From positions 166,658,001-166,722,000 of the forward strand of contig NC_086097.1 of the NCBI RefSeq assembly GCF_963921235.1: a DNA stretch of 64,000 nucleotides, read 5' to 3'. Origin of the DNA: Mobula hypostoma. Its lineage: Eukaryota. A program made the translations under genes and the position numbers. The notes beneath the pieces are model-generated. The model saw only the letters and a list, made by a program, of their open reading frames with translations. It was not told the DNA's origin and made no database searches. This document shows, piece by piece, positions 8,909 through 47,795 of this stretch (position 1 is the first letter of the stretch; the number at the start of each line of letters is the position of its first letter).

Positions 8909-10050
8909 CTGCAATTAAATGCAAGCATTAGGTTAACAAGTTCCTACCACCACTCAGGCAGGAGGCTGTTTTGCAAATGCAAAGTAATCAGAATCAGGTT
9001 TATTATCACTGATGTATGTTGTGAAATTTGTTGTTTCATGGCAGCGGTTCAGTACAAGACACTAAATAAATAGGTAAAAAGGAATAGCAAGGTCGTATTC
9101 ATGGGATCATGAACCATTCAGAAGTCTGATGGTGGAAAGGAAGAGGTTGTTCCTAGAATGTTGAGTATGCACCTACAGGCTCCTATACCTCTTTGATAGT
9201 GGAATGAAAAGAGGGAGTGTCTTGGATGGTCAAAGCCTTCGTGCTGGACGCTGCCCTCTGGATGCCCTTGATGAAGGGGAGGCTTATGCCCGTGATGGAG
9301 CTGGCTGAGTTTGCAACCCTTTACTGTCTCTTTCAATCCTGAGCCTCCTCACTAGGCTATGATACAACCAGCTGGAATGCTCTCAAACATGCATTTGTGA
9401 CACCAGACCTCCTCAAACTCCTAATGAAGTATAGCCACTGGCTTGCCTTTTTCAAAGTTCAAAGTACATTTATTATCAAAGTATGTATACATTATACAAC
9501 CTTGAGATTTGTCTCCTTGCAGGCAACCACAAAACAATGAAACCCAAAATAACTCATTAAAAAAAAGTCAAACACCCAATATGCAGAGAGAAAAGATAAA
9601 ACAGATTGTGCAATCAATAAAAGTAAGCAAACAGCATTCCAGACAAAAATGCATCCATAGACACAAAACCCAGAGTAGTTGGAGCAGGCCGGAGCCTCAG
9701 CCTCAGTTCAGTGCAGAGCCAAGTAAGCATTACAGAGCAGTGATCAGAACTGGCCCGTCCCTTGACTCTTGTCCCGACACCCTGTCTTTTCTATCCACCA
9801 TCCAAACATCGGGTCATTCCTCGCATTGTCACCCAGGCCCTGCTGCTCTGGGACTTCACAGTCATGTTTTAGTCCGTACCCGACCTTTCCAAATCAGCCA
9901 GCTGCTTAGATGGATCAAACCCTGATCTTAGTTTAGGTGGACGGCCCTCGAATCTGCCTCTCCTCCACTCCATTTGCTCCGACTTTACCTTGAATATGCC
10001 TCAACCTCACCCTGATTTTCCCTCGAACGTGTCTCAATGTTGCCTCGACT

Positions 10051-10320
10051 GCCATGCACCCACCCACTCTGACTCTACACTCAGCTTCACCTTTGGCCAC
10101 GCACCCACCCACTCTGACTCTACACTCAGCTTCATCTTTGGCCACGCACCCGCCCACTCTGACCCTAGTCTCAGCTTCACCTTTGGCCACGCACCCACCC
10201 ACTCTGACCCTAGACTCAGCTTCACCTTTGGCCACGCACCCACCCACTCTGACCCTAGACTCAGCTTCACCTTTGGCCACGCACCCACCCACTCTGACCC
10301 TAGACTCAGCTTCACCTTTG
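10051..10320. repeat. Minisatellite, 6 x 45 bp
   Basis: Unit GCCACGCACCCACCCACTCTGACCCTAGACTCAGCTTCACCTTTG, six exact-length units. Confidence 0.97.
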
Positions 10321-11529
10321 CTCGTCTCTCCATTGTTTGCAGCGATTGTTTACCATACTTGTTTGTGATTGTATTGGTATGTTGGGCGCAAGATAGATCC
10401 TCTGAGATATTGATACCCAGCTGTTCACCTTTTCCACTGCTGAAATCTCAAAAGGCTCTGGTGTGTGTTCCCTGGACTTCCCCTTCCCCAAGAAAAAGCT
10501 CCAATATATGAACTCATGCAAAATACTGAGAAAAATAATGATAGGATTTTACCATCGTAACAGCCCTGAAATGAGTATATGTTTTATACTTATAACATTA
10601 TGAATCTGACAACAACGTCAGAATTCCCACATTGCATAATTTACCAAACCTGCTGTTCATACTCCAGCAGTCCCTTGTTTGCAGCCTCTTCCAATGTATT
10701 CTGAGATTTGACAATAGATGCAAGCATTTAAAAAGCATTCTTTCCTGCAAATCGTATGCTTTGCTGTGTAGGTGCAAAGAAATTTTAATGGTGCACTAAG
10801 TCATAAGTAATGTATGACAAAATTCTGTGGACCTCAAAAAATAGATTTTTGAATTTTATTACCCTCAGATACATATTTCAAAATATACTGTAGCACATTG
10901 TCATATTTTTAAATTTTGAAAGTGTTACTGATATTTCAGTTTCAACATCTTACGTAAATATTAAAAATACTGGTTGAAAATCTGTATTTTCCTTCCTGGT
11001 TTGCTGTCAAAGAGGATTCTTCATTATGATTGGATGCTCAACCAGCGAGTTGCTGGGCACCAGTGTCACATTTGAACTGATACCTGAGGATAGCTGGGAT
11101 TGGATAAGTATCTTGGCCAGGTTCTGATGAAGTCATCGTGACAGCCACTGACCACACTGACCAATGCATTTAAGTTTAAAAGGGACTTGAGAGGCAACTT
11201 CTTCTCCCAGGAATAGTTAGTATATGAAACAAGCTGTCTGAAGCAGTGGTTGTTGTAAGTACAATAAGAACATTTAAAAGATACTTGGTGAGGTACCGTG
11301 GATAGCAAAGATTCGGAGGGGTATGAGCCAAGTAGGACTAGCATAAATCTTAGTTGGCGTGGGTAAGGAGGGTAGAAGGGCCCATTTCTGTGTCATATAA
11401 CTCTGACTTTATGAGGAAAACCAGGAACCAGAGAGCCATTAGTGCTAAAAACGTATGACTTGATCAAAAGTTTAACAACATATATTACAAGGGGTTGATT
11501 TAACTGAGAATAATATGCAATTTTCTTAC

Positions 11530-12292: not shown

Positions 12293-15200
12293 AGAGGGAT
12301 GGGAACCAGTGCAGAGAGACAGAGGGGTGTAAAGTGAGCGTAGAAGCAAAAAGTACAAAGGGGAAAAGTAAAAGTGGCAGGCCGACAAATCCAGGGCAAG
12401 CATTAAAAAGGGCTAAGAGAGTTGTAAAAGAGCGCCTGAAGGCTTTATGTGTCAATGCAAGGAGCATTCGTAATAAGGTGGATGAATTGAAAGTGCAGAT
12501 TGTTATTAATGATTATGATATAGTTGGGATCACAGAGACATGGCTCCAGGGTGACCAGGGATGGGAGCTCAACGTTCAGGGATATTCAATATTCAGGAGG
12601 GATAGACATGAAGGAAGGGGAGGTGGGGTGGCGTTGCTGGTTAAAAAAGAGATTAACGCAATAGAAAGGAAGGACATAAGCCGGGAAGATGTGGAATTGA
12701 TATGGGTAGAGCTGCGTAACACTAAGGGGCAGAAGACGCTGCTGGGAGTTGTGTACAGGCCACCTAACAGTAGTAGTCAGGTCGGAGATGGTATTAAACA
12801 GGAAATTAGAAATGTGTGCAATAAAGGAACAGCAGTTATAATGGGTGACTTCAATCTACATGTAGACTGGGTGAACCAAATTGGTAAAGGTGCTGAGGAA
12901 GAGGATTTCTTGGAATGTATGCGGGATGGTTTTTTGAACCAACATGTCGAGGAACCGACTAGAGAGCAGGCTATTCTGGACTGGGTTTTGAGCAATGAGG
13001 AAGGGTTAATTAGCGATCTTGTCGTGAGAGGCCCCTTGGGTAAGAGTGACCATAATATGGTGGAATTCTTCATTAACATGGAGAGTGACGTAGTTAATTC
13101 AGAAACAAAGGTTCTGAACTTAAAGAGGGGTAACTTTGAAGGTATGAGACATGAATTAGCTAAGATAGACTGGCAAATGACACTTCAAGGATTGACGGTG
13201 GATATGCAATGGCAGGCATTTAAAGGTTGCATGGATGAACTACAACAATTGTTCATCCCAGTTTGGCAAAAGAATAAATCAAGGAAGGTAGTGCACCCGT
13301 GGCTGACAAGAGAAATTAGGGATAGTATCAATTCCAAAGAAGTAGCATACAAATTAGCCAGAGAAAGTGGCTCACCTGAGGACTGGGAGAAATTCAGAGT
13401 TCAGCAGAGGAGGACAAAGGGCTTAATTAGGAAGGGGAAAAAAGATTATGAGAGAAAACTGGCAGAGAACATAAAAACGGACTGTAAAAGCTTTTATAGA
13501 TATGTAAAAAGGAAAAGACTGATAAAGACAAATGTAGGTCCCCTGCAAACAGAAACAGGTGAATTGATTATGGGGAGCAAGGACATGGCAGACCAATTGA
13601 ATAATTACTTTGGTTCTGTCTTCACTAAGGAGGACATAAATAATCTTCCAGAAATAGTAAGGGACAGAGGGTCCAGTGAGATGGAGGAACTGAGCGAAAT
13701 ACATGTTAGTAGGGAAGTGGTGTTAGGTAAATTGAAGGGATTGAAGGCAGATAAATCCCCAGGGCCAGATGGTCTGCATCCCAGAGTGCTTAAGGAAGTG
13801 GCCCAAGAAATAGTGGATGCATTAGTGATAATTTTTCAAAACTCGTTAGATTCTGGACTAGTTCCTGAGGATTGGAGGGTGGCTAATGTAACCCCACTTT
13901 TTAAAAAAGGAGGGAGAGAGAAACCGGGGAATTATAGGCCGGTTAGCCTAACGTCGGTGGTGGGGAAACTGCTGGAGTCAGTTATCAAGGATGTGATAAC
14001 AGCACATTTGGAAAGCGGTGAAATGATCGGACAAAGTCAGCATGGATTTGTGAAAGGAAAATCATGTCTGACGAATCTCATAGAATTTTTTGAGGATGTA
14101 ACTAGTAGAGTGGATAGGGGAGAACCAGTGGATGTGGTATATTTGGATTTTCAAAAGGCTTTTGACAAGGTCCCACACAGGAGATTAGTGTGCAAACTTA
14201 AAGCACATGGTATTGGGGGTAAGGTATTGGTGTGGGTGGAGAATTGGTTAGCAGACAGGAAGCAAAGAGTGGGAATAAACGGGACCTTTTCAGAATGGCA
14301 GGCGGTGACTAGTGGGGTACCGCAAGGCTCAGTGCTGGGACCCCAGTTGTTTACAATATATATTAATGACTTGGATGAGGGAATTAAATGCAGCATCTCC
14401 AAGTTTGCGGATGACACGAAGCTGGGTGGCAGTGTTAGCAGTGAGGAGGATGCTAAGAGGATGCAGGGTGACTTGGATAGGTTGGGTGAGTGGGCAAACT
14501 CATGGCAGATGCAATTTAATGTGGATAAATGTGAAGTTATCCACTTTGGTGGCAAAAATAGGAAAACAGATTATTATCTGAATGGTGGCCGATTAGGAAA
14601 AGGGGAGGTGCAACGAGACCTGGGTGTCATTATACACCAGTCATTGAAAGTGGGCATGCAGGTACAGCAGGCGGTGAAAAAGGCGAACGGTATGCTGGCA
14701 TTTATAGCGAGAGGATTCGAGTACAGGAGCAGGGAGGTACTACTGCAGTTGTACAAGGCCTTGGTGAGACCACACCTGGAGTATTGTGTGCAGTTTTGGT
14801 CCCCTAATCTGAGGAAAGACATCCTTGCCATAGAGGGAGTACAAAGAAGGTTCACCAGATTGATTCCTGGGATGGCAGGTCTTTCATATGAAGAAAGACT
14901 GGATGAACTGGGCTTGTACTCGTTGGAATTTAGAAGATTGAGGGGGGATCTGATTGAAACGTATAAGATCCTAAAGGGATTGGACAGGCTAGATGCGGGA
15001 AGATTGTTCCCGATGTTGGGGAGGTCTAGAACGAGGGGTCACAGTTTGAGGATAGAGGGGAAGCCTTTTAGGACCGAGGTTAGGAAAAACTTCTTCACAC
15101 AGAGAGTGGTGAATCTGTGGAATTCTCTGCCACAGCAAACTGTTGAGGCCAGTTCATTAGCTATGTTTAAAAGGAAGTTAGATATGGCCCTTGTGGCTAC

Positions 15201-15343
15201 AGGGGTCACGGGGTATGGAGGGAAGGCTGGGTTCTGAGTTGGATGATCAGCCATGATCATAATAAATGGCGGTGCAGGCTCGAAGGGCCGAATGGCCTAC
15301 TCCTGCACCTATTTTCTATGTTTCTATGTTTCTATGTTTCTAT
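12293..15343 (+). mobile_element. Young CR1 LINE copy A, 5'-truncated, with uninterrupted ORF2 (APE endonuclease + reverse transcriptase)
   Basis: ORF 12334-15237 (967 aa) with NARS, GITETW, GDFN, SDHN (endonuclease) and [19 protein letters not shown] (RT) motifs; 3' tail of TTTCTATG repeats. Confidence 0.97.
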
Positions 15344-16376: not shown

Positions 16377-17778
16377 CCCTTCTTTAAAAGAAAGGGAGTA
16401 GAGGTAGCCCAGGAAATTATAGACCAATGAGTCTTATTTCAGTGGTTGGTAAGTTGATGAAGAAGATCCTGAGAGGCAGGATTTATGAACATTTGGAGAG
16501 GTATTATATGATTAGGAATACTCAGCATGGCTTTGTCAAGGGCAGGTCGTGCCTTACGAGCCTGATCGAATTTTTTGAGGATGTGACAAAACACATTGAT
16601 GAAGGAAGAGCAGTAGGTGTAGTGTATTTGGATTTCAGCAAGGCATTTGATAAGGTACCCCATGCAAGGCTTATTGAGAAAGTAAGGAGGCATGGGATCC
16701 AAGGGGACATTGCTTTGTGGATCCAGAACTGGCTTGCCCACAGAAGGCAAAGAGTGGTTGTAGACAGGTCATTTTCTGCATTGAGGTCGGTGACCAGTGG
16801 TGTGCCTCAGGGATCTGTTCTGGGACTCTTACTCTTTGTGATTTTTATAAATGACCTGGATGAAGGATGGGTTAGTAAGTTTGCTGATGACACAAAGGTT
16901 GGAGGTGTGGATGGGTGGAGGGCTGCCAGAGGTTACAGCGGGACATTGGTAGGATTCAAAACTGGGCTGAGAAGTGGCAGATGGAGTTCAACCAAGATAA
17001 GTGTGAACTGGTTCATTTTCGTAGGTCAAATATGATGGCAGAATATAGTATTAATGGTAAGACTCTTGGCAGTGTGGAGGATCAGAGGGACCTTGGGGTC
17101 CGAGTCTATAGCACGCTCAAAGCCACCGCGCAGGTTGACTCTGTGGTTAAGAAGGCGTACAGTGTATTGGCCTTCATCAATCGTGGAATTGAATTTCGGA
17201 GCCGAGGTAATATTGCAGCTGTATAGGACCCTGGTCAGACCCCACTTGGAGTACTGTGCTCAGTTCTGGTCGGCTCACTACAGGAAGGATGTGGAAGCCA
17301 TAGAAAGGGTGCAGAGGAGATTTACAAGGATGTTGCCTGGATGGGGGAGCATGCTTTATGAGAATAGGTTGAGTGAACTCGGCCTTTTCTCCTTGGAGCG
17401 ACGGAGGATGAGAGATGACCTGATAGAGGTGTATAAGATGATGAGAGGCATTGATCGTGTGGATAGTCAGAGGCTTTTTTCTAGGACTGAAATGGTTGCC
17501 AGAAGAGGACACAGGTTTAAGGTGCTGGGGAGTAGGTACAGAGATGTCGGGGGTAAGTTTTTTACGCAGAGAGTGGTGAGTGCATGGAATGGGCTGCCGG
17601 CAAAGGTGGATATGATAGGGTCTTTAAAGAGACTTTTGGATAAGTACATGGAGATTAGAAGAATAGAGGGCTATGGGGAAGTTCAGTGCTTTCTAGGGTA
17701 GGGACGTGTTTGGCACAACTTTGTGGGCCGAAGGGCCTGTATTGTGCTGTAGGTTTTCTACATTTCTCTGTTTCTATG
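16377..17778 (+). mobile_element. CR1 LINE, 5'-truncated RT region with frameshifts (different subfamily), nested in an older CR1 3'-end fragment
   Basis: RT fragments at 16427-17035, 16915-17226 and 17054-17701 (KFADD present); TTTCTATG-like tail; flanks 16297-16370 and 17780-17815 look like the two halves of a minus-strand CR1 3' end. Confidence 0.9.
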
Positions 17779-23018: not shown

Positions 23019-26000
23019 ATAGAAACATAGAAACATAGAAAATAGGTGCAGGAGTAGGCCATTCGGCCCTTCGAGCCTGCACCGCCATTTATTATGATCA
23101 TGGCTGATCATCCAACTCAGAACCCTGCCCCAGCCTTCCCTCCATACCCCCTGACCCCTGTAGCCACAAGGGCCATATCTAACTCCCTCTTAAACATAGC
23201 CAATGAACTGGCCTCAACAGTTTGCTGTGGCAGAGAATTCCACAGATTCACCACTCTCTGTGTGAAGAAGTTTTTCCTAATCTCGGTCCTAAAAGGCTTC
23301 CCCTCTATCCTCAAACTGTGACCCCTCGTTCTGGACTTCCCCAACATCGGGAACAATCTTGCCGCATCTAGCCTGTCCAATCCCTTTAGGATCTTATACG
23401 TTTCAATCAGATTCCCCCTCAATCTTCTAAATTCCAATGAGTACAAGCCCAGTTCATCCAGTCTTTCTTCATATGAAAGTCCTGCCATCCCAGGAATCAA
23501 TCTGGTGAACCTTCTTTGTACTCCCTCTATGACAAAGATGTCTTTCCTCAGATTAGGGGACCAAAACTGCACACAATACTCCAGGTGTGGTCTCACCAAG
23601 GCCTTGCACAACTGCAGTAGTACCTCCCTGCTCCTGTACTCGAATCCTCTCGCTATAAATGCCAGCATACCATTCGCCTTTTTCACCGCCTGCTGTACCT
23701 GCATGCCCACTTTCAATGACTGGTGTATAATGACACCCAGGTCTCGTTGCACCTCCCCTTTTCCTAATCGGCCACCATTCAGATAATAATCTGTTTTCCT
23801 ATTTTTGCCACCAAAGTGGATAACTTCACATTTATCCACATTAAATTGCATCTGTCATGAGTTTGCCCACTCACCCAACCTATCCAAGTCACCCTGCATC
23901 CTCTTAGCATCCTCCTCACTGCTAACACTGCCGCCCAGCTTCGTGTCATCCGCAAACTTGGAGATGCTGCATTTAATTCCCTCATCCAAGTCATTAATAT
24001 ATATTGTAAACAACTGGGGTCCCAGCACTGAGCCTTGCGGTACCCCACTAGTCACCGCCTGCCATTCTGAAAAGGTCCCGTTTATTCCCACTCTTTGCTT
24101 CCTGTCTGCTAACCAATTCTCCACCCACACCAATACCTTACCCCCAATACCGTGTGCTTTAAGTTTGCACACTAATCTCCTGTGTGGGACCTTGTCAAAA
24201 GCCTTTTGAAAATCCAAATATACCACATCCACTGGTTCTCCCCTATCCACTCTACTAGTTACATCCTCAAAAAATTCTATGAGATTCGTCAGACATGATT
24301 TTCCTTTCACAAATCCATGCTGACTTTGTCCGATCATTTCTCTGCTTTCCAAATGTGCTGTTATCACATCCTTGATAACTGACTCCAGCAGTTTCCCCAC
24401 CACCGACGTTAGGCTAACCGGTCTATAATTCCCCGGTTTCTCTCTCCCTCCTTTTTTAAAAATTGAGGTTACATTAGCCACCCTCCAATCCTCAGGAACT
24501 AGTCCAGAATCTAACGAGTTTTGAAAAATTATCACTAATGCATCCACTATTTCTTGGGCTACTTCCTTAAGCACTCTAGGATGCAGACCATCTGGCCCTG
24601 GGGATTTATCTGCCTTCAATCCCTTCAATTTACCTAACACCACTTCCCTACTAACATGTATTTCACTCAGTTCCTCCATCTCACTGGACCCTCTGTCCCT
24701 TACTATTTCTGGAAGATTATTTATGTCCTCCTTAGTGAAGACAGAACCAAAGTAATTATTCAATTGGTCTGCCATGTCCTTGCTCCCCATAATCAATTCA
24801 CCTGTTTCTGTCTGCAGGGGACCTACATTTGTCTTTACCAGTCTTCTCCTTTTTACATATCTATAAAAGCTTTTACAGTCCGTTTTTATGTTCCTTGCCA
24901 GTTTTCTCTCATAATCTTTTTTCCCCTTCCTAATTAAGCCCTTTGTCCTCCTCTGCTGAACTCTGAATTTCTCCCAGTCCTCAGGTAAGCCACTTTCTCT
25001 GGCTAATTTATATGCTACTTCTTTGGAATTGATATTATCCCTAATTTCTCTTGTCAGCCACGGGTGCACTACCTTCCTTGATTTATTCTTTTGCCAAACT
25101 GGGATGAACAATTGTTGTAGTTCATCCATGCAACCTTTAAATGCTTGCCATTGCATATCCACCGTCAATCCTTTAAGTGTCATTTGCCAGTCTATCTTAG
25201 CTAATTCACGTCTCATACCTTCAAAGTTCCCCTTCTTTAAGTTCAGAAACTTTGTTTCTGAATTAACTATGTCACTCTCCATATTAATGAAGAATTCCAC
25301 CATATTATGGTCACTCTTACCCAAGGGGCCTCTCACGACAAGATCGCTAATTAACCCTTCCTCATTGCTCAAAACCCAGTCCAGAATAGCCTGCTCTCCA
25401 GTTGGTTCCTCGACATGTTGGTTCAAAAAACCATCCTGCATACATTCCAAGAAATCCTCTTCCTCAGCACCTTTACCAATTTGGTTCACCCAGTCTACAT
25501 GTAGATTGAAGTCACCCATTATAACTGCTGTTCCTTTATTGCACACATTTCTAATTTGCTGTTTAATACCATCTCCGACCTCACTACTACTGTTAGGTGG
25601 CCTGTACACAACTCCCACCAGCGTCTTCTGCCCCTTAGTGTTACGCAGCTCTACCCATATCGATTCCGCATCTTCCCGGCTTATGTCCTTCCTTTCTATT
25701 GCGTTAATCTCTTCTTTAACCAGCAACGCCACCCCACCTCCCCTTCCTTCATGTCTATCCCTCCTGAATATTGAATATCCCTGAACGTTGAGCTCCCATC
25801 CCTGGTCACCCTGGAGCCATGTCTCTGTGATCCCAACTATATCATAATCATTAATAACAATCTGCACTTTCAATTCATCCACCTTATTACGAATGCTCCT
25901 TGCATTGACACATAAAGCCTTCAGGCGCTCTTTTACAACTCTCTTAGCCCTTGTACAATTATGTTGAAAAGTGGCCCTTTTTAATGCTTGCCCTGGATTT

Positions 26001-26632
26001 GTCGGCCTGCCACTTTTACTTTTCTCCTTTGTACTTTTTGCTTCTATGCTCACTTTACACCCCTCTGTCTCTCTGCACTGGTTCCCATCCCTCTGTTGTG
26101 AACTAACCTCCTCACGCCTAGCCTCTTTAATTTGATTCCCACCCCCCAACCATTCTAGTTTAAAGTCACCTCAGTAGCCCCCGCTAATCTCCCCGCCAGG
26201 ATATTGGTCCCCCTAGGATTCAAGTGTAACCCGTCCTTTTTGTACAGGTCACGCCTGCGCCAAAAGAGGTCCCAATGATCCAAAAACTTGAATCCCTGCC
26301 CCCTGCTCCAATCCCTCAGCCACGCATTTATCCTCCACCTCATCGCATTCCTACTCTCACTGTCGCGTGGCACAGGCAGTAATCCCGAGATTACTACCTT
26401 TGCGGTCCTTTTTCTCAACTCCCTTCCTAGCTCCCTATATTCTCCTTTCAGGACCTCATCCCTTTTCCTACCTATGTCATTGGTACCTATATGTACCACG
26501 ACCTCCGGCTCCTCACCCTCCCACTTCAGGATATCTTGGACACGATCAGAAATATCCCGGACCCTGGCACCAGGGAGGCAAACTACCATCCGGGTCTCTG
26601 GACTGCGTCCACAGAATCGCCTATCTGACCCC
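23019..26632 (-). mobile_element. Young CR1 LINE copy B (same family as copy A), including the 3' part of ORF1 (SGNH/esterase-like); ORF2 broken by one TGG>TGA
   Basis: ORF1 part 26155-26589 (CLPGARV, HIGTND, DGLHLN); ORF2 split by the stop at 23855-23857; (CATAGAAA)n tail on the + strand from 23019; near-identical to copy A. Confidence 0.97.
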
Positions 26633-27124
26633 CTGGTGTTGACAGATGGAAACTGATTTTTCTCTTTTATTGAACATCAGCATTAAGTGATCTGATGGCA
26701 GACACCAGCCTAACAGAAAGTTTTCCGAAAGCCTGTTCTTAGAATAACGTGACTTATTGCATAAACTTCATATGTTCCTTTCCCAGAAAAAGAGGTAAAA
26801 ATCCTTCTCTCAGACCAGAGGCAATTCGTATCAACCTAAAAATTGACAGCCATTTTCTGTCATGGACTCACATCCATTAGGAAAGAGCGAATATCATCCA
26901 ACTTATTTTAACCTCATAATTATTGGCAAATGCAACATTACATCCATTTCAATGGCATGAATTCAAACTGAAGATACAAAGAATATAGGGCCATGATTCA
27001 AATATTTTACAACATCTTTCTACGTGTGCTAAATCTTTAGCAAAACAGATTTTTTTAATAATTAGATATTTCATCACCTGCCACAAAGATGACCATTTTC
27101 CAGAATTAGAATTATATCACTTAC

Positions 27125-27389: not shown

Positions 27390-28925
27390 AGTTCAAAGTA
27401 AATTTATTATCAAAAAATGTACTGTATATGTCACCTTATACAGCCCTTTGATTCATTTTCTTGAGGGTAATCACAGTAAATACAAGAAACACAATAGAAT
27501 CAATAAAATACCACACTTAATAAGATGGACAACAATCAATGTGCAAAAAAACAAACTGTAAGTACAAAAGGAAGGAACAAATAAGCAATAAATATCGAGA
27601 ACAAGATGAAGAGTCCTTGAAAGTGAGTCTACCTCAGTAGGAACAGTTCAGTCGCAAACAACAGGAATTCTACAGATGCTGGAAATTCAAGCAACACACA
27701 TCAAAGTTGCTGGTGAATGCAGCAGGCCAGGCAGCATCTGTAGGAAGAGGTGCAGTCAACGTTTCAGGCCAAGACCTCTTCCTACAGATGCTGCCTGGCC
27801 TGCTGCGTTCACCAGCAACTTTGATGTGAGGAACAGTTCAGTGATGAGATGAGTGATGTTGAGTGAAATTATCCCCTCTAGTTAAAGAGCGTGATGTTTG
27901 TTGAGTAATAACCATTCCTGAGCCTGGTGGTGCAAGTTTTGAGGCTCCTGTACCTTCTTCCTGATGGCAGCAGTGAGGAGAGGTGGGGGTCTTTGATGAT
28001 GGATACTACTTTCCTGCAACAGCGCTCCATGTAGATGTGCTCAATGGTGGGGAGGACTTTACCTGTGATGGACTTTTTGTGGGATTTTCCATACCAGGCT
28101 GTGATGCAACCAGTCAATATACCTTCCACCACACATCTACAGAAGTTTGTCAAAGTTTCACACGACATGCCAAATCTTTGCAAACTTCTAAAAAACTAGA
28201 GGTGCTGCTGTACTTTCTTCGTAATGGCACTTACATCATGAAGCCAGGACAGATCTTCTAAAATGATAACTCCAAGGAATCTAAAGTTGCTGACCATCTC
28301 CACTTCTGACCTCCCGATTACAACTTGCTTGTGAACCTCCAGTTTTCTCCTCTTGAAGTCAATAATCATCTTCTTGGTTTTGCTGACATTGAGTGAGGGG
28401 TAGTTGTTGAAGCACCACTCAGCCAGATTTTTATCTCCCTCCAATATGCTGATTTGTCACCATCCTTGAATTGGCCAACGCCAATGGTGTCATCAGTAAA
28501 CTTAAATATTGCATTGGAGCTGTGTCAATTGGAGCTCACAGTCATAAGTGTAAAGCATGCAGATTGGGGGCTAAACACTCGACCTAGTGGTGTACCTATG
28601 CTGGGGCAAATTCTGGAGAAGATGTTGCTACTAATCTGAACTGACTGAGGTTTGCAAGTTAGGAAATCGAGGATCCCATTGCACAAGGAGGTATTGAGGC
28701 CTAGGACTTGGAACTTATTGATTAGTCTGGAGGGGACGATGGTATTGAATGCCGATCTGTAGTCAATGAACAGCAACCTGGTGTGTGGATCTGTGCTGTC
28801 CAGATGTTCCAGGATTGAGTGAAGAGCCAATGAAATGGAATCTGCTGTTGACCTGTTGTGGCAAATTGGAGTCAAATCAAGTCACTTCACAGGCAGGAGT
28901 TGATATCTTCACCAACCTCTGAAAC
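27390..28925 (-). mobile_element. Decayed Rex1/Babar-type LINE, 3' half
   Basis: Fragments RLLFIDYRSAFNTI, SLNVSKTKKMIIDF and LLPSGRRYRS; 3'UTR interrupted by a fold-back element. Confidence 0.85.
27653..27828. mobile_element. Fold-back element copy, 14-bp TSD
   Basis: AGGAACAGTTCAGT at 27639-27652 and 27829-27842. Confidence 0.85.
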
Positions 28926-34788: not shown

Positions 34789-37700
34789 CATTCAATCCTA
34801 GAATCATTTTCGTGAATCTCCTTTGAACTCTCTCCAGTTTCAGCACATCCCTTCTAAGATAGGGGGCCCAAAAATGCTCATAATTACATCCTTCCTTTTA
34901 TATTCTAGTCCTCTTGAAATTAATGCTAACATTACATTTGCCTTCCTTGCCACAGACTCAACCTGCAAATTAAACTTTAGGGAATCCTGGACAAGGACTC
35001 CCAAGTCCCTTTGCACCTCAGTTTTTTGTATTTTCTCTCCATTTAGGAAATAGTCAACACTTTCATTTCTTTTACCAAAGTGCATGGCTGTAAATTTCCC
35101 AACACTGTATTCCATCTTTTATTTCTTTGCCCATTCTCCTAATCTGTCTACGTCCTTCAGTAGCCTCTCTACTTCCTCAAAACTACCTGCCTCTGCACCT
35201 ACCTTCATATTATCTGCAAACTTTGTAACAAAGTCATCGATTTTAACATCCAAATCATTGACATATAATTTAATAAGAATTGGTCTCAACACAAAACCCC
35301 TATGAAACACCACTAGTCACTGGCAGCCAACCGGAAAAGGCTCCCCTCATTCCCACACTTTGCCTCCTGCCAATCAGCTACTGCTTCACCCATGCCAGAA
35401 ACTTTCCTGTAATACAGTACCATGGGCTCATAGCTTGTTAAGCAGCCTCTGAATATCCCAAGTACATAACATCAAGCAACTCTCCTTTGTCTGTCCTGCT
35501 TGTTATATCTTCAAAAAATTCGAACAGATTTGTCAGGCAAGATTTTCCCTTAAGGAAACCATGCTGACTATGGCCTATTTTATCATGTGCCTCCAAGTAC
35601 CCTGAGAGCACATCCTTGATAATCAACTCCAACATCTTCCCAACCACTGTCAGACTAAGTAGCCTATAGTTTTCTTTCTTCTGCCTCTCTTCCTTCTTGA
35701 AGATTGGAGAGACATTTGCAATTTCCCAGTCTTAAGAACTATTGCAGAATCTAGTGTTTCTTGAGAGATCATTACTAATGCCTCCACAATCTCTCCAGTC
35801 ACCCCTTTCAGAAGTCTGGGATGTACACTATCTGGACCAGGTGACTTATCTACCTTTAGACCTTTCAGTTTCCCAAGAACCTTCTGCTAGTTATGGTAAC
35901 TTCACACACTTCATGTCCCCTGACACCTGGAACTTCCACCCTACTGCTAGTGTCTTCCACAGTGAAAACTGATGCAAAATACTTATTCAGTTCATCTGCA
36001 ATTTCCTTGTTCCCCATTACTACCTCTCCAGCATCGTTTACAAGCAGTCTAATATCCACTGTCATCTCTCTTTTACACTTTTATGTATCTGAAGAACTTT
36101 TGGTACCCTCTTAAATATTATTGGCTAGCTTACTTTTGTATTCCATCTTTACCTTGTTAATGACTTTTCAGTTGCCATCTGTTGGTTTTTAAAAGATTTC
36201 CAATCCTCCAACTTCCCACTATTTTTTGCTCTATTATATGCCTTCTATTTGGCTTTTATGACAGTTTTGACTTCTCTTGTTAGCCACAGTTGTGTCATCT
36301 TTCCTTTAGAATGCTTTCTTCTCTTTGAGATGTATTTATCCTGTGCCTTCCGAATTACATCCAGAAATTCCAACCATTTCTGCTCTGCGGTCATCCCTGC
36401 CAGTGTTCTTTTCCAATCAATTCTGGCCAACTCCTCTCTATTGCCTCTGTAGTTCTCTTTACTCCACTGTAATACTGATACAGCTGTCTTTAGTTTCTCC
36501 TTCTCAATTTTCAGTGTGAATTCAATCATATTATGGTGGCTTTCCCCTAAGGGTTCTTTTACCTGAAGCTCTCTAATTAATTCTGTTCCATTGTCTAACA
36601 CCCAATTCGCAATAGCTGATCCTCAACCACCAGCTGCACTAAAAAGCCATCTCATAGGCACTCTAGAAATATACCCTCCTGTAATCCAACACCAACAAGA
36701 TTTTCCCAATCTACCTGCATATTGAAGTCCCCCATGCCTTTTGGTACGCATTTTTTAATCTCCCATTATAATTTGTAGGCCACATCCTTACTACTGCTTG
36801 GTGGTCTGTATACAACTCCCACCCATGTCTTTTTACTCTTACAGTTCCTTAGCTCTATCCACAATGATCCAACACCTTCCAAACCCATGTCACCTCCTTC
36901 TAATGATTTTTCATTTTTTTTTAATCAACAGAGCAATGCCACCCCCTCTGCCTCCCTGCCTGTCCTTTCGATACAATGTGGATTCTCAGTCATTAAGCTC
37001 CCAGCTATAATCTTTCAGCCATGATTCAGTGATGCCTACAACATCAAACCTGCTAATCTGCAACTGTGCTACAAGTACATCTACCTCATTCTGTATGTTG
37101 TGCGCATTGAGATACAACACCTTCAGTCCTGTATTCACCCTTTTTGATTTTGTTGTACCATGCTCAACCTTTTAATTCCTAACTTTGTCTGACGTCTTAC
37201 ATACATCTACCTCCACTGACAGTTCTGGCAGTCTGGTTCCCATCCCCCTACGACTTTAGTTTAAACCCTATCATTAACAAACCTTCCCGCTGGGTTATTA
37301 TACTTCTCCAGTTCAGGTGCAAACTGTCCCTTCTTTACAGGTTCCACCCTCCCTGGAAGAGAGCCCAATGATCCAAAAATCTTATGCCCTCCCTCCTACA
37401 CAAACACCTTAGCCACGTATTAAACGATATAATCTTTCTAGTTCTTGCCTCACTAGCACGTGGCATGATAGCAAACCTGAGATCACAACCCTGGAGATCC
37501 TTCCCTGTAACTTAGCACCCAACTCCTTGAACTCCCTATGCAAAGCCCCATCACTTGTCCTTCCCATGTTATTGGTACCTACATGGACCATGACTTCTAT
37601 CTGTTCACCCTCCCACTTAAGAATGCTGAGGTCTTGATACAAGGTATTCCGGACCCTGGTACTGGGAGCCAACATACTGGGAATCTCGTTCTCGCCCACA

Positions 37701-40631: not shown

Positions 40632-40772
40632 CTACCTGTGTGTGAGTTTGCACGTTCTTCCTGTAACAGCATGCATTTCCTCTGAGTAGCTCCAGTTTCT
40701 TCCCACATCCAAAGTTGTGTTGGTTGGAAGGTCATGGTAAATTACTCCCTTCATGTGAGTTAGTGGTAGAAT
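40632..40772 (+). mobile_element. V-SINE (HE1-like) core fragment; related copies at about 29250-29400, 32272-32500 and 33195-33290
   Basis: gagtttgcacgttc...tttcctc...gctccagtttcttcccacatccaaag resembles the V-domain consensus as I recall it. Confidence 0.65.
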
Positions 40773-41424
40773 GGGTGAGCAGGTGGTAGAATGGGTGAGC
40801 TGATGGTAGAATGGGTGAGCTGATGGTAGAATGAGTGAGCGGGTGCTGGAATGGGTGAGCTGGTGGTAGAATGGGTGAGCGGGTGCTGGAATGGGTGAGC
40901 GGGTGGTGGAATGGGTGAGCTGATGGTAGAATGGGTGAGTGGGTGGTAAAATTGGTGAGCGGGTGGTAGAATGGGTGAGCTGATGGTAGACTGGGTGAGC
41001 GGGTGGTGGAATGGGTGAGCGGGTGGTGGAATGGGTGAGCTGGTGGTGGAATGGGTGAGCGGGTGCTGGATTGGGTGAGCGGGTGCTGGAATGGGTGAGC
41101 TGGTGGTGGAATGGGTGAGCGGGTGCTGGAGTGGTTGAGCTGGTGGTGGAATGGGTGAGTGGGTGCTGGAATGGGTGAGCTGGCGGTGGAATGGGTGAGC
41201 GGGTGCTGGAATGGGTGTATGGGTGGTGGAATGGGTGAGCGGGTGGTGGAATGGGTGAATGGGTGGTAGAATGGGTGCGCAAGTGGTAGAATGGGTGAGC
41301 GGGTGGTAGAATGGGTGAGCGGGTGGTAGAATGGGTGTACGGGTGGTAGAATGGGTGAGCGAGTGGTAGAACGGGTGAGCGAGTGGTAGAACGGGTGACC
41401 GAGTGGTAGAATTGTGAGCAGGTG
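40755..41424. repeat. G-rich minisatellite, about 33 x 20 bp
   Basis: Unit GGGTGGTAGAATGGGTGAGC with point variants. Confidence 0.97.
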
Positions 41425-41895
41425 AAAGAATTTTCTACTTCCCAGTTAATTCACTTGAAGCTTTTCTTCTCAATTTGCCCATTTCCACAGCGAGTAGCTA
41501 CAATTTTCCTCAACTGTTCAGATGGACTTCATTTATAGGGAAGATTAAAAACTAGGATTCAGCCCCAGGTCTGTGAGGTGGGCAGGTAAACCAACAGTTA
41601 ACAGTGTAATCATCATTCATTCCATTAGCAATTTTGCATCAATAGTATTGACTGTGTTCCAATCAGCCTACAAAATTTTAGCTCTGAGGGATGATTGAGA
41701 AGAGAGTGGCTGTTTTCTTTAGCAAGGAGTTGATGGACACTTAATTGAAGTGCATAAAATTTTGTGAGATCCAGAAAGAGAAAATACAGAGGACTATTCT
41801 TTTGGAGAAAGGGTCAAACACCCTGGAGCATAAGAGATGGTCAGGATCTCTTTTCTTCCCTGCCAACCATTCAATTGGCTACCCTTGATCAGGTA

Positions 41896-45541: not shown

Positions 45542-45669
45542 GTATGGTATATTGTTTTAAATTACTGTTGAATCTGATCAATTGATCCCCATGTGGATCA
45601 GGACACAAAATTATACTTAAATCAATCTGTCCTTATATTTTTGCAAATCTTGTATTAATATACTCTGTC

Positions 45670-47795
45670 CTTGAGCACATCAACAAGTGTGTAGATAGAG
45701 TGACATCACAAAAACAAATAAAAGTTTTCCCCAATCAGAAATCATGGACGATCAGAAAAGTTTGTCTCCTGCTCAAAGCCAGAGATACAGCCTTCAGGTC
45801 TGGAGACCGGGAGGCTTACAGCTCAGCCAGGGCCAACCTGAGGAGGGGAATCTCTCAGGCTAAACACATATACAAACAGAGAATCGAGGAGCATTTCAAC
45901 TCTTCGGACCCCCGGCACATGTGGCATGGCATACAGGTCATTTCCGACTTCAAACCACCTAGTACTGTGCCCCTTTCCAGCTCTGCTTCCCTCCCTGATG
46001 AGCTCAATTACTTCTACGCTCGCTTTGACCGAGAGAACAAGGAGGTCACCCTCAAAGCGGATCTCCCACCTGGTGAACTGCCTCTCTCACTTTCCACCTC
46101 CGATGTTTACGCCACCCTGAGCAGGGTGAATGTATGGAAGGCAGCTGGTCCGGATGGAATACCTGGCCGTGTGCTCAGAGTCTGTGCAGGGTAGTTGGCC
46201 GGGGTCTTCACGGACATTTTTAATCTGTCCCTGGCCCAGGCGGTTGTCCCCACAAGCTTCAAGATCGTCACCATCGTGCCAGTGCCGAAGCATTCCACTG
46301 CCAAGGGCCTGAATGACTTCTGTCCAGTTGCACTCACCCCCATCATTGCAAAGTGCTTTAAGGGACTGGTTCCATCACATCTAAAATCCTGTCTGCCCAC
46401 TACCCCGGACCTATCAATTAGCCTATTGCACCAACAGGTCAACAGAGGATGCTATCTCCACAGCACTTCACTCTGCCCTGACCCACCTGGACAGCCCCAA
46501 CTCTTACGTCAGAATGCTGTTCATTGACTTCAGTTCAATATTCAATACTGTCGTTCCCTCCAAGCTGATCACCAAACTTCGCCGGCTTGGTATCAGCTCA
46601 TCCCTCTGCAATTGGACCTTGGACTTTCTGACTAACAAAACCCAATCAGTTAAGTTAGACAACCTCTCCTCCTCCACTCTCACCCTGAACACCGGCATAA
46701 GAGACTACTAGACAGGTATATGGAGGAATCTAAGGTGGGGGCTTATATGGGAGGCAGGGTTTGAGGGTCAGCACAACACTGTGGGCTGAAGGGCCTGTAC
46801 TGTGCTGTACTATTCTATGTTCTACGCCTCAAGGCTGTGTGCTGAGCCCTCTTCTGTACTCCCTTTTCACCTATCACTGTGTTCCTGTACATGGTTCTAA
46901 CTCCATAATCAAGTTTGCAGAAGACACCACGATGGTTGGCCTGATCAGAGGGGGTGATGAGACGGCCTACAGGGACAAGGTCCAGCACCTGGCCGCATGT
47001 TGTGCCGACAACAACCTGGCCCTTAACACCCAGAAGACCAAGGAGATCATTGTGGACTTCAGGCATGCTAGGAGCCACACTCACGTCCCCAGCTACATCA
47101 ACGGAGCTGTAGTGGAGCGTGTACCAAGCTTCGAATTCCTTTGTATCCACGTTTCTGAGGATTTCACCTGGTCCCTGAACTCCTCCATCCTGATCAAAAA
47201 GGCACAACAGTGCCTTTATTTCCTGTGGAGCATGAAGAAAGCTCACCTCTGTCCCAGGATACTGACGGACTTTTACCGCTGTACCATTGAGAGCATACTC
47301 ACCAACTGCATCTCAGTGTGGTATGGCAATTGTCCCGTATCGGACCGCAAAGCACTCCAGCGTGTGGTGAAAACTGCCCAGTGGATTATCGTCACCCAAT
47401 TGCCCACCATTGAGAACATCTACCATAAACACTGCCTGGGCAGAGCGAAAAGCATTATCAAGGATGCATCTCACTCTAACCATGGACTCTTTACTCTCCT
47501 CCCATCCGGTAGGCGCTACAGGAGCCTCCACTCCCACACCAGCAGGCACAGGAAGAGCTTCTTCCCTGAGGCTGTGACCCTGCTGAACCTCACATCACAG
47601 CGCTAAGCAGTATTGCACCGATATTGTACTGTCTCAGTACTTTTATATTTGTGTGCTGTAGCACTTACTTTTTATTCACAGTTATTTTGTAAATAACACT
47701 ATTCTTTGCATTTCTGGTTGGATGCTAACTGCATTTCATTGGCTTTGTATCTGTACTCGACACAATGACAATAAAGTTGAATCTAATCTAATCTA
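45670..47795 (+). mobile_element. Rex1/Babar-type LINE (RT region, a few stops and frameshifts) with (AATCT)n tail
   Basis: [57 protein letters not shown]; tail aataaagttgaatctaatctaatct; CR1 3'-end insert at 46698-46824. Confidence 0.92.

Follow-up and report, generated by a model that had tools for sequence, protein, structure and literature searches.

A candidate programmed −1 frameshift signal at the ORF1–ORF2 junction of CR1-type LINEs

INTRODUCTION

Canonical sites of programmed −1 frameshifting combine an in-register X_XXY_YYZ heptamer with a downstream ORF that is open in the −1 frame, and a stem-loop or pseudoknot lies 5–9 bases downstream. The coronavirus U_UUA_AAC sites use a downstream pseudoknot. 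This heptamer is among the most shift-prone for mammalian ribosomes (PMC5009743, where the frameshift of HeT-A is also treated). The −2/−1 frameshift of the arterivirus PRRSV is stimulated by protein and has no obvious 3′ structure; its motif follows a 10-base spacer, and spacers of 9–11 are tolerated (PMC4937337). Among retroelements, the APE-type non-LTR elements TRE5-A and TRE3-A of Dictyostelium need a −1 frameshift for ORF2 (PMC5911963), and in Penelope-like elements a frameshift that involves a pseudoknot can separate off ORF1 (PMC8557442).

The worked examples of LINE ORF2 translation are of reinitiation, and translation of the second ORF of LINEs has been called unclear (PMC3708506). 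CR1 is the main LINE of birds (PMC11835228). The LINEs of the CR1 clade (avian, turtle and cartilaginous-fish CR1, and elements with a ZfL2-1-type esterase, PDB 4c1b) share an esterase ORF1, an ORF2 with APE endonuclease and reverse transcriptase (RT), and a repeat tail. A 1997 study of chicken CR1 by Haas reportedly calls the ORFs closely spaced.

Here we describe the junction between the two ORFs of a CR1-type LINE in the ray Mobula hypostoma and its relatives. A reading of the sequence alone had proposed that ORF2 of this element is expressed in the manner of gag-pol. From the comparison of families we consider it probable, at roughly 85%, that ORF2 is made as an ORF1–ORF2 fusion through programmed −1 frameshifting on U_UUA_AAC.

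RESULTS

A CR1-type LINE with an esterase ORF1

The window, a stretch of 64,000 nucleotides of M. hypostoma DNA, contains a young LINE copy on its minus strand (Table 1). The element belongs to the CR1-type LINEs with an esterase ORF1: APE and RT domains in ORF2, an SGNH domain in ORF1 and a repeat tail are all present. A short tandem-repeat 3′ tail in place of poly(A) is a feature of CR1-type LINEs, and the copy ends (near 23040–23019) in a short TTCTATGT repeat, not poly(A). The nearest named relative of its ORF1 is a ray protein (P0001) of 97% identity, which matches the ORF1 esterase of PDB 4c1b with E 9e-28, and a stork gene model has 49% identity over 613 columns to the ORF2 of the window family. 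The copy is a dead relic of the signal, since the first half of ORF1 is missing (the element starts only at about 26634) and a premature TGA at 23857–23855 cuts ORF2, two defects that the sequence-only reading had overlooked; ORF1 is 311 residues long in intact copies.

Other repeats lie in the window. A sister copy of the same family (12293–15337, plus strand) is truncated at its 5′ end just past the junction, and its open frame of 986 codons covers nearly all of ORF2. Fragments of other RT-encoding LINEs are found at 45586–47606 (plus), 27878–28881 (minus) and 16388–17701 (plus), and tandem repeats at 9873–10511 and 40632–41450 yield long spurious open frames. Elsewhere in the genome, the full-length copy L241 is immediately preceded by the 3′ end of a further member of its family (L241:1-485).

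Table 1. Features of CR1-type copies and their ORF junctions in the window
Feature	Position	Strand	Remarks
Young CR1-type LINE copy, 5′-truncated	23019..26634	−	97.7% identical to L241, a full-length copy (3,616 columns)
ORF1 3′ half: SGNH/GDSL esterase domain, Leu-Asn-stop end	26155..26634	−	Pfam Lipase_GDSL_2, E 1.9e-16
Candidate slippery heptamer U_UUA_AAC (TTTAAAC), in ORF1 register	26158..26164	−	Kept in 11/11 ray families and 11/14 bird-type loci
ORF1 stop TAG directly 3′ of heptamer	26155..26157	−	
Conserved G-rich 3′ motif (GGGGGGTGGGAA), candidate stimulator	26136..26147	−	Begins after 10-base spacer
ORF2 frame: APE endonuclease and reverse transcriptase	23855..26170	−	Pfam Exo_endo_phos, RVT_1; 771 codons
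ORF2 linker, shift site to endonuclease N-A-R-S motif	25907..26157	−	Open only in −1 frame, no ATG; offset 258 bases
Rest of ORF2 behind premature stop	23117..23854	−	Continuous with ORF2 frame in intact copies
Junction cassette of older, decayed CR1 family: TTTAAAC TAA, 7 bases, GGGGGATGGG	37236..37265	−	~65% DNA identity

The junction between the two ORFs

ORF1 ends GTG ACT TTA AAC TAG (V T L N stop), with TTTAAACTAG at 26164–26155 of the minus strand. ORF2 is the −1 frame, open through the endonuclease and RT domains; it opens at 26170 behind a TGA and reads G D F K L E W L G. The sequence-only reading had described this arrangement correctly, including the want of an early ATG: the first in the window ORF2 is at codon 218 (25519, MGDFN), inside the endonuclease and well past its N-A-R-S motif, and the 'M' of the program-made ORF track is a TTG at 26149, codon 8 of the −1 frame. 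A G-rich tract starts at 26152, five bases past the heptamer.

Taken alone, the 10-mer TTTAAACTAG is not above chance in the 64-kb window (5 matches with at most one mismatch, 7.5 expected). Counting the cassette heptamer-TAR-N7-GGGGRNNGGG over the genome gave 19,050 matches, against 3 for the reversed control. The junction signal is a family feature far above chance and is not peculiar to the window copy. An older, decayed CR1 family with a zinc-finger-like ORF1 start (window 37721–35128, minus strand) carries the same heptamer, stop and G-motif, with heptamer and stop at 37265–37256.

Conservation of the heptamer

How strongly is the heptamer held in the genome? An anchor that does not include it, H-L-N-x-x-G-T-N-I, gave 19,318 matches (reversed control 0). 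At the fixed distance from these anchors stood TTTAAAC in 13,402 cases, a heptamer with another first base in 433, one with a CTN Leu codon in 79 and TTTAAAT in 449; the genome-wide count covers these four classes, TTG-Leu variants falling outside them. A looser anchor (113,195 matches, control 78,432) was excluded from the counts. The variants listed are scattered over many families. A suspected A_UUA_AAC subfamily was rejected: variants with A (4), C (5) or G (2) come to just 11 against 1,199 intact heptamers, so that no variant has been amplified.

For a comparison by family, 192 sequences were given and 189 placed, of which 163 were distinct and fell into 31 clusters. Once the 30 loci that had been chosen because their heptamer is altered were set aside, 11 clusters of at least two copies remained, one of them (family 13) found only by a heptamer-containing pattern. 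The majority sequence is T TTA AAC TAR in all 11 of these ray families, which are related, so that the counts are not independent trials. Among 103 copies fetched regardless of the heptamer, 85 were in register, and these keep the seven positions in 82, 84, 79, 81, 81, 77 and 74 copies.

Beyond rays, a metagenome scan gave 46 loci, 14 of which reach the end of ORF1 (8 of the 14 from one data set); we call them bird-type solely by their likeness to named avian proteins. TTTAAAC is present in 11 of the 14, one of these read by eye as out of register, and the other three carry substitutions. For column counts, eight bird-type rows were chosen for having heptamer, stop and enough downstream sequence, giving 19 rows with the 11 from rays; because of that selection, the presence of the heptamer in 19/19 is partly by choice on the bird side. 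The stop that follows it in these rows is TAG in 14, TAA in five (all in ray families, 5/11) and TGA in none. As it is always TAG or TAA, the first codon of the −1 frame is always CTA, a rare codon (6% of Leu codons).

It might be supposed that nothing acts here except coding need and common descent, Leu-Asn ending an esterase helix and the rest being inherited. ORF1 proteins that end in Leu-Asn are indeed very widespread (40 of 54 hits, counted by eye; 50 of the 69 cluster representatives that reach the end, among 150 listed), and 3 of 23 control codons are likewise invariant among ray families. These controls are degenerate codons elsewhere whose amino acid is invariant, and the other 20 vary synonymously among nine ray families; with three bird-type rows added, 11 of 12 vary. 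The codon before Leu encodes any of six residues (T, A, S, G, D or V), yet it always ends in T. TTA makes up only 23% of the Leu codons of ORF2 and AAC 24% of its Asn codons. Against coding need as the whole explanation stands the concentration of constraint, the heptamer being 7 of the 10 invariant columns in the last 69 bases of ORF1 (17 rows). In families that have no AUG before the endonuclease, moreover, its N-terminus would be untranslatable. On these comparisons coding need alone appears largely refuted, and we give it very little credence. The sequence-only reading had asked whether TTTAAAC is conserved beyond the need to encode Leu-Asn, with ORF2 always in the −1 frame; at the level of families the heptamer is invariant beyond that need, and every family that could be placed has its ORF2 in the −1 frame. 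No second in-register X_XXY_YYZ was found at the 1,298 codon positions of one intact copy.

Intact copies and the open linker

Twenty stretches were fetched around ORF1 matches chosen for few or no stops, and 16 of them belong to the window family. Both frames are whole in 11 of the 20, where ORF2 is a single frame of 1,006–1,008 codons and the layout of the junction is identical. Since 11 intact full-length copies share this junction, the −1 offset is not due to decay. In these copies the first Met comes only at codon 209, after the endonuclease motif at codon 80.

The linker between the shift site and the endonuclease motif is open in one frame only. In the window family the −1 frame has no stops and the other frames have 4 and 8. 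Over 16 rows, with linkers of 34–108 codons, the −1 frame again has none, and the other two have 2–9 and 1–11; family 6 was excluded from this count, having no endonuclease motif and, in the majority sequence of its four copies, a stop at linker codon 39. The −1 frame opens just 1–5 codons ahead of the heptamer in the 11 ray families, and 2–37 codons ahead in six bird-type rows. Linker length changes only in whole codons: among 58 copies whose linker length is shared, that length keeps the −1 frame in 56. That no other frame of the linker is free of stops implies that translation crosses it from the junction itself. The window linker is nine codons longer than that of the fetched full-length copies (258 against 231 bases, at about 25970–25940 of the minus strand), an in-frame difference between subfamilies.

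AUG codons and reinitiation

The open linker would be accounted for equally well by termination and reinitiation, in which ribosomes stop at the ORF1 UAA or UAG and restart nearby in the −1 frame, at AUG or another codon, so that ORF2 protein is made free of ORF1; on this view the conserved bases serve as a reinitiation signal. A rat L1 paper reportedly argues for reinitiation instead of frameshifting. SART1 uses a UAAUG stop-start (PMC3708506). An AUG adjoining the ORF1 stop, as in SART1, occurs in none of the 11 ray families. In bird-type rows an in-frame AUG lies two bases past the stop in three of eight and one codon later in a fourth, and the codon at two bases past the stop is ATG, GTG or TTG in 9 of the 19 rows.

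That ORF2 is AUG-less, as the sequence-only reading had it, is true of the window family and of 6 of 10 ray families, but not of some bird-type copies. In those six families the majority sequence has no AUG before the endonuclease (in one of them, three of six copies have one). The other four have a linker AUG, at codon 15, 29, 38 or 74, as do all six bird-type rows scored. The missing AUG proves little by itself, because human L1 retrotransposes with the AUG of ORF2 swapped for other sense codons (PMC1965478), and the AUGs present in some rows leave room for reinitiation, at the least as an additional route in certain lineages. Yet AUG positions differ between rows, and the heptamer is retained even in the rows that have an AUG. 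Reinitiation also leaves unexplained why a canonical in-register X_XXY_YYZ should precede the stop, down to the wobble base of a codon that otherwise changes freely, and how ORF2 would start in the 6 of 10 ray families and 11 intact copies that have no AUG before the endonuclease. We consider it unlikely as the explanation of the junction, although it may operate alongside frameshifting in bird lineages. Three bird-type loci (L121, L122 and L124) have the in-frame AUG two bases past the stop and retain the heptamer, and so possibly have two routes to ORF2.

Other vertebrates and predicted proteins

How widespread is an ORF1 of this kind? The named hosts of proteins ending in Leu-Asn include sharks, rays, birds, turtles, lizards, a snake and a frog. 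The end is not shared by all esterase LINEs, since esterase models from catfish end otherwise. Some distant esterase ORF1 proteins (P0308 and P0315, also P0281, P0322 and P0313) end Q-G-N, a terminus that could be encoded by G_GGA_AAC, itself a shift-prone heptamer; in others the last residues are FFH, KDF or TLK. Related loci were found in neither viral contigs nor prokaryote genomes; the sole pattern match in viral contigs (L276) was rejected, because neither an esterase nor an endonuclease frame is present where the pattern matches.

Certain predicted proteins (P0010, P0031 and P0035) read from the esterase into the −1 frame. We identified no CR1 family with a single in-frame ORF, and the fused predicted proteins look like frameshifted copies or spliced models. 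Splicing, or an internal transcription start, might put ORF2 behind another AUG, with the conserved bases serving as splice signals. CTAG does resemble a 3′ splice site, and three automatic stork gene models (P0183, P0186 and P0194) enter the −1 frame exactly at the heptamer (S/FKLDSKGEGD). These models are predictions that pick up an open frame, however, and TAA replaces TAG in 5 of 11 ray families. Nor is there a polypyrimidine tract, the 30 bases upstream being only 27–43% pyrimidine. We regard this explanation as highly improbable.

The downstream G-rich motif

Beyond the stop a second element is conserved. Counted from the heptamer, positions +11 to +15 and +18 to +20 are G in 17–19 of the 19 rows, and positions +4 to +10 are variable. 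The motif follows a 10-base spacer in both rays and birds, and comes one base earlier (spacer 9) in family 1. There the same G6-T-GGG begins at +10 and the peptide becomes R-G-V-G-S; this one-base shift alters the peptide and therefore points to a nucleotide signal, not a peptide. GGG, which makes up 25% of the Gly codons of ORF2, is the usual codon at both Gly positions that the motif spans.

The suggestion that the tract forms a weak hairpin or a G-structure found no support as a conserved feature. Folding of one real copy per row (17 rows) gave mean z values of −0.33 and −0.01 and empty consensus folds under a model that excludes pseudoknots and long-range pairs, and the downstream region of the window copy gave z −0.13, pseudoknots again being outside the model. 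The region has no Rfam match at gathering score. A quadruplex is predicted in only 5 of 17 rows, several families having just three GG runs in the first 35 bases. Row-wise folding and the Rfam search thus gave no conserved hairpin or quadruplex, and a stimulator of that kind was rejected. Judged from the alignments, the motif behaves as a sequence motif at a fixed distance.

Several other functions for these sequences were considered and rejected. The core of a TURBS is UGGGA. A calicivirus-type TURBS does not fit a motif that lies 3′ of the stop, not 5′, and that reads AGGGG in bird-type rows. The 2A motif is DxExNPGP, and the window linker has NPG without it. Slippage within the G-run could not join the frames, because the run lies 3′ of the stop. 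Finally, the ATG that certain families have inside GGGGGATGGG belongs to the ORF1 frame, and other families have GTG or AAG in its place.

DISCUSSION

The invariance of the heptamer, the −1 placement of ORF2 and the identical layout of the intact copies support the frameshift reading of the CR1 junction at the level of sequence. On this mechanism most ribosomes would stop at the end of ORF1 and release the 311-residue protein. A minority would slip back by one base with tRNA-Leu and tRNA-Asn, in tandem −1 slippage of low frequency, and would read CUA next, so that the junction becomes T-L-N-L-E-W. The slipped product would be a fusion of esterase, endonuclease and RT of about 1,313 residues, and the rate of slippage would fix a high ratio of ORF1 to ORF2 product, as in gag-pol. 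More tentatively, the pause might come from the G-rich sequence, by way of a protein bound there or of direct contact between sequence and ribosome, and not from folded RNA.

How does the junction compare with the systems already described? It shares with canonical −1 sites the in-register X_XXY_YYZ and the downstream ORF open in the −1 frame, but differs from them in having no conserved stem-loop (pseudoknots being outside the folding model). The heptamer and its register are those of coronavirus ORF1a/1b, and the order of an upstream structural ORF and a polymerase in the −1 frame is found there and in retroviral gag-pol. In contrast to both, the CR1 stop comes directly after the heptamer, a conserved stem-loop is absent, and the element is a cellular non-LTR retroelement. 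The CR1 junction thus appears to work like a gag-pol −1 site, yet it fails the test of a folded stimulator.

A parallel to the motif downstream may be offered by PRRSV. A short unstructured motif at 9–11 spacing is also present in CR1 (10, or 9 in one family), although this is an analogy: PRRSV has a C-rich motif (CCCANCUCC), to which PCBP and nsp1beta bind, and a different shift site, whereas the CR1 motif is G-rich and is not known to bind a protein. As a G-rich 3′ element without conserved structure, the CR1 motif may represent a new kind of stimulator.

Among retroelements, TRE5-A and TRE3-A differ from CR1 in being amoebal elements with another ORF1. SART1 and mammalian L1 resemble CR1 in having a bicistronic LINE RNA with low ORF2 output (PMC3708506, PMC1965478), but CR1 does not have the overlapping stop-start of SART1; its ORF2 overlaps ORF1 in the −1 frame.

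A −1 frameshift as the route to CR1 ORF2 appears undescribed in the literature searched. A full-text search, the scope of which leaves out key older papers, supplements and Repbase libraries, returned no description of a frameshift signal at the CR1 junction; 'CR1' is absent from the first 300,000 characters of PMC5009743, and 'frameshift' from PMC3905857.

A bolder proposal is that the fusion of esterase, endonuclease and RT is the only source of RT in vertebrate CR1, from cartilaginous fish to birds, and that the −1 frameshift is switched by a protein that binds the G-motif, either a host G-tract binder or the ORF1 protein. This we hold to be possible but doubtful. If it were true, the motif would be the G-rich counterpart of the arterivirus signal, an instance of protein-controlled frameshifting in a cellular retroelement, and it would offer hosts a means of controlling what is, in many vertebrate genomes, the most abundant LINE.

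The frameshift itself has consequences for the family. The cassette is present in some 19,000 copies in the genome of Mobula hypostoma, and the whole signal fits into about 30 bases, so that it is directly testable in a reporter. If the reading is true, the ORF2 protein of CR1 would be redefined as a fusion, annotations that start ORF2 at an internal Met would be corrected, and the way to build a working CR1 assay would be shown.
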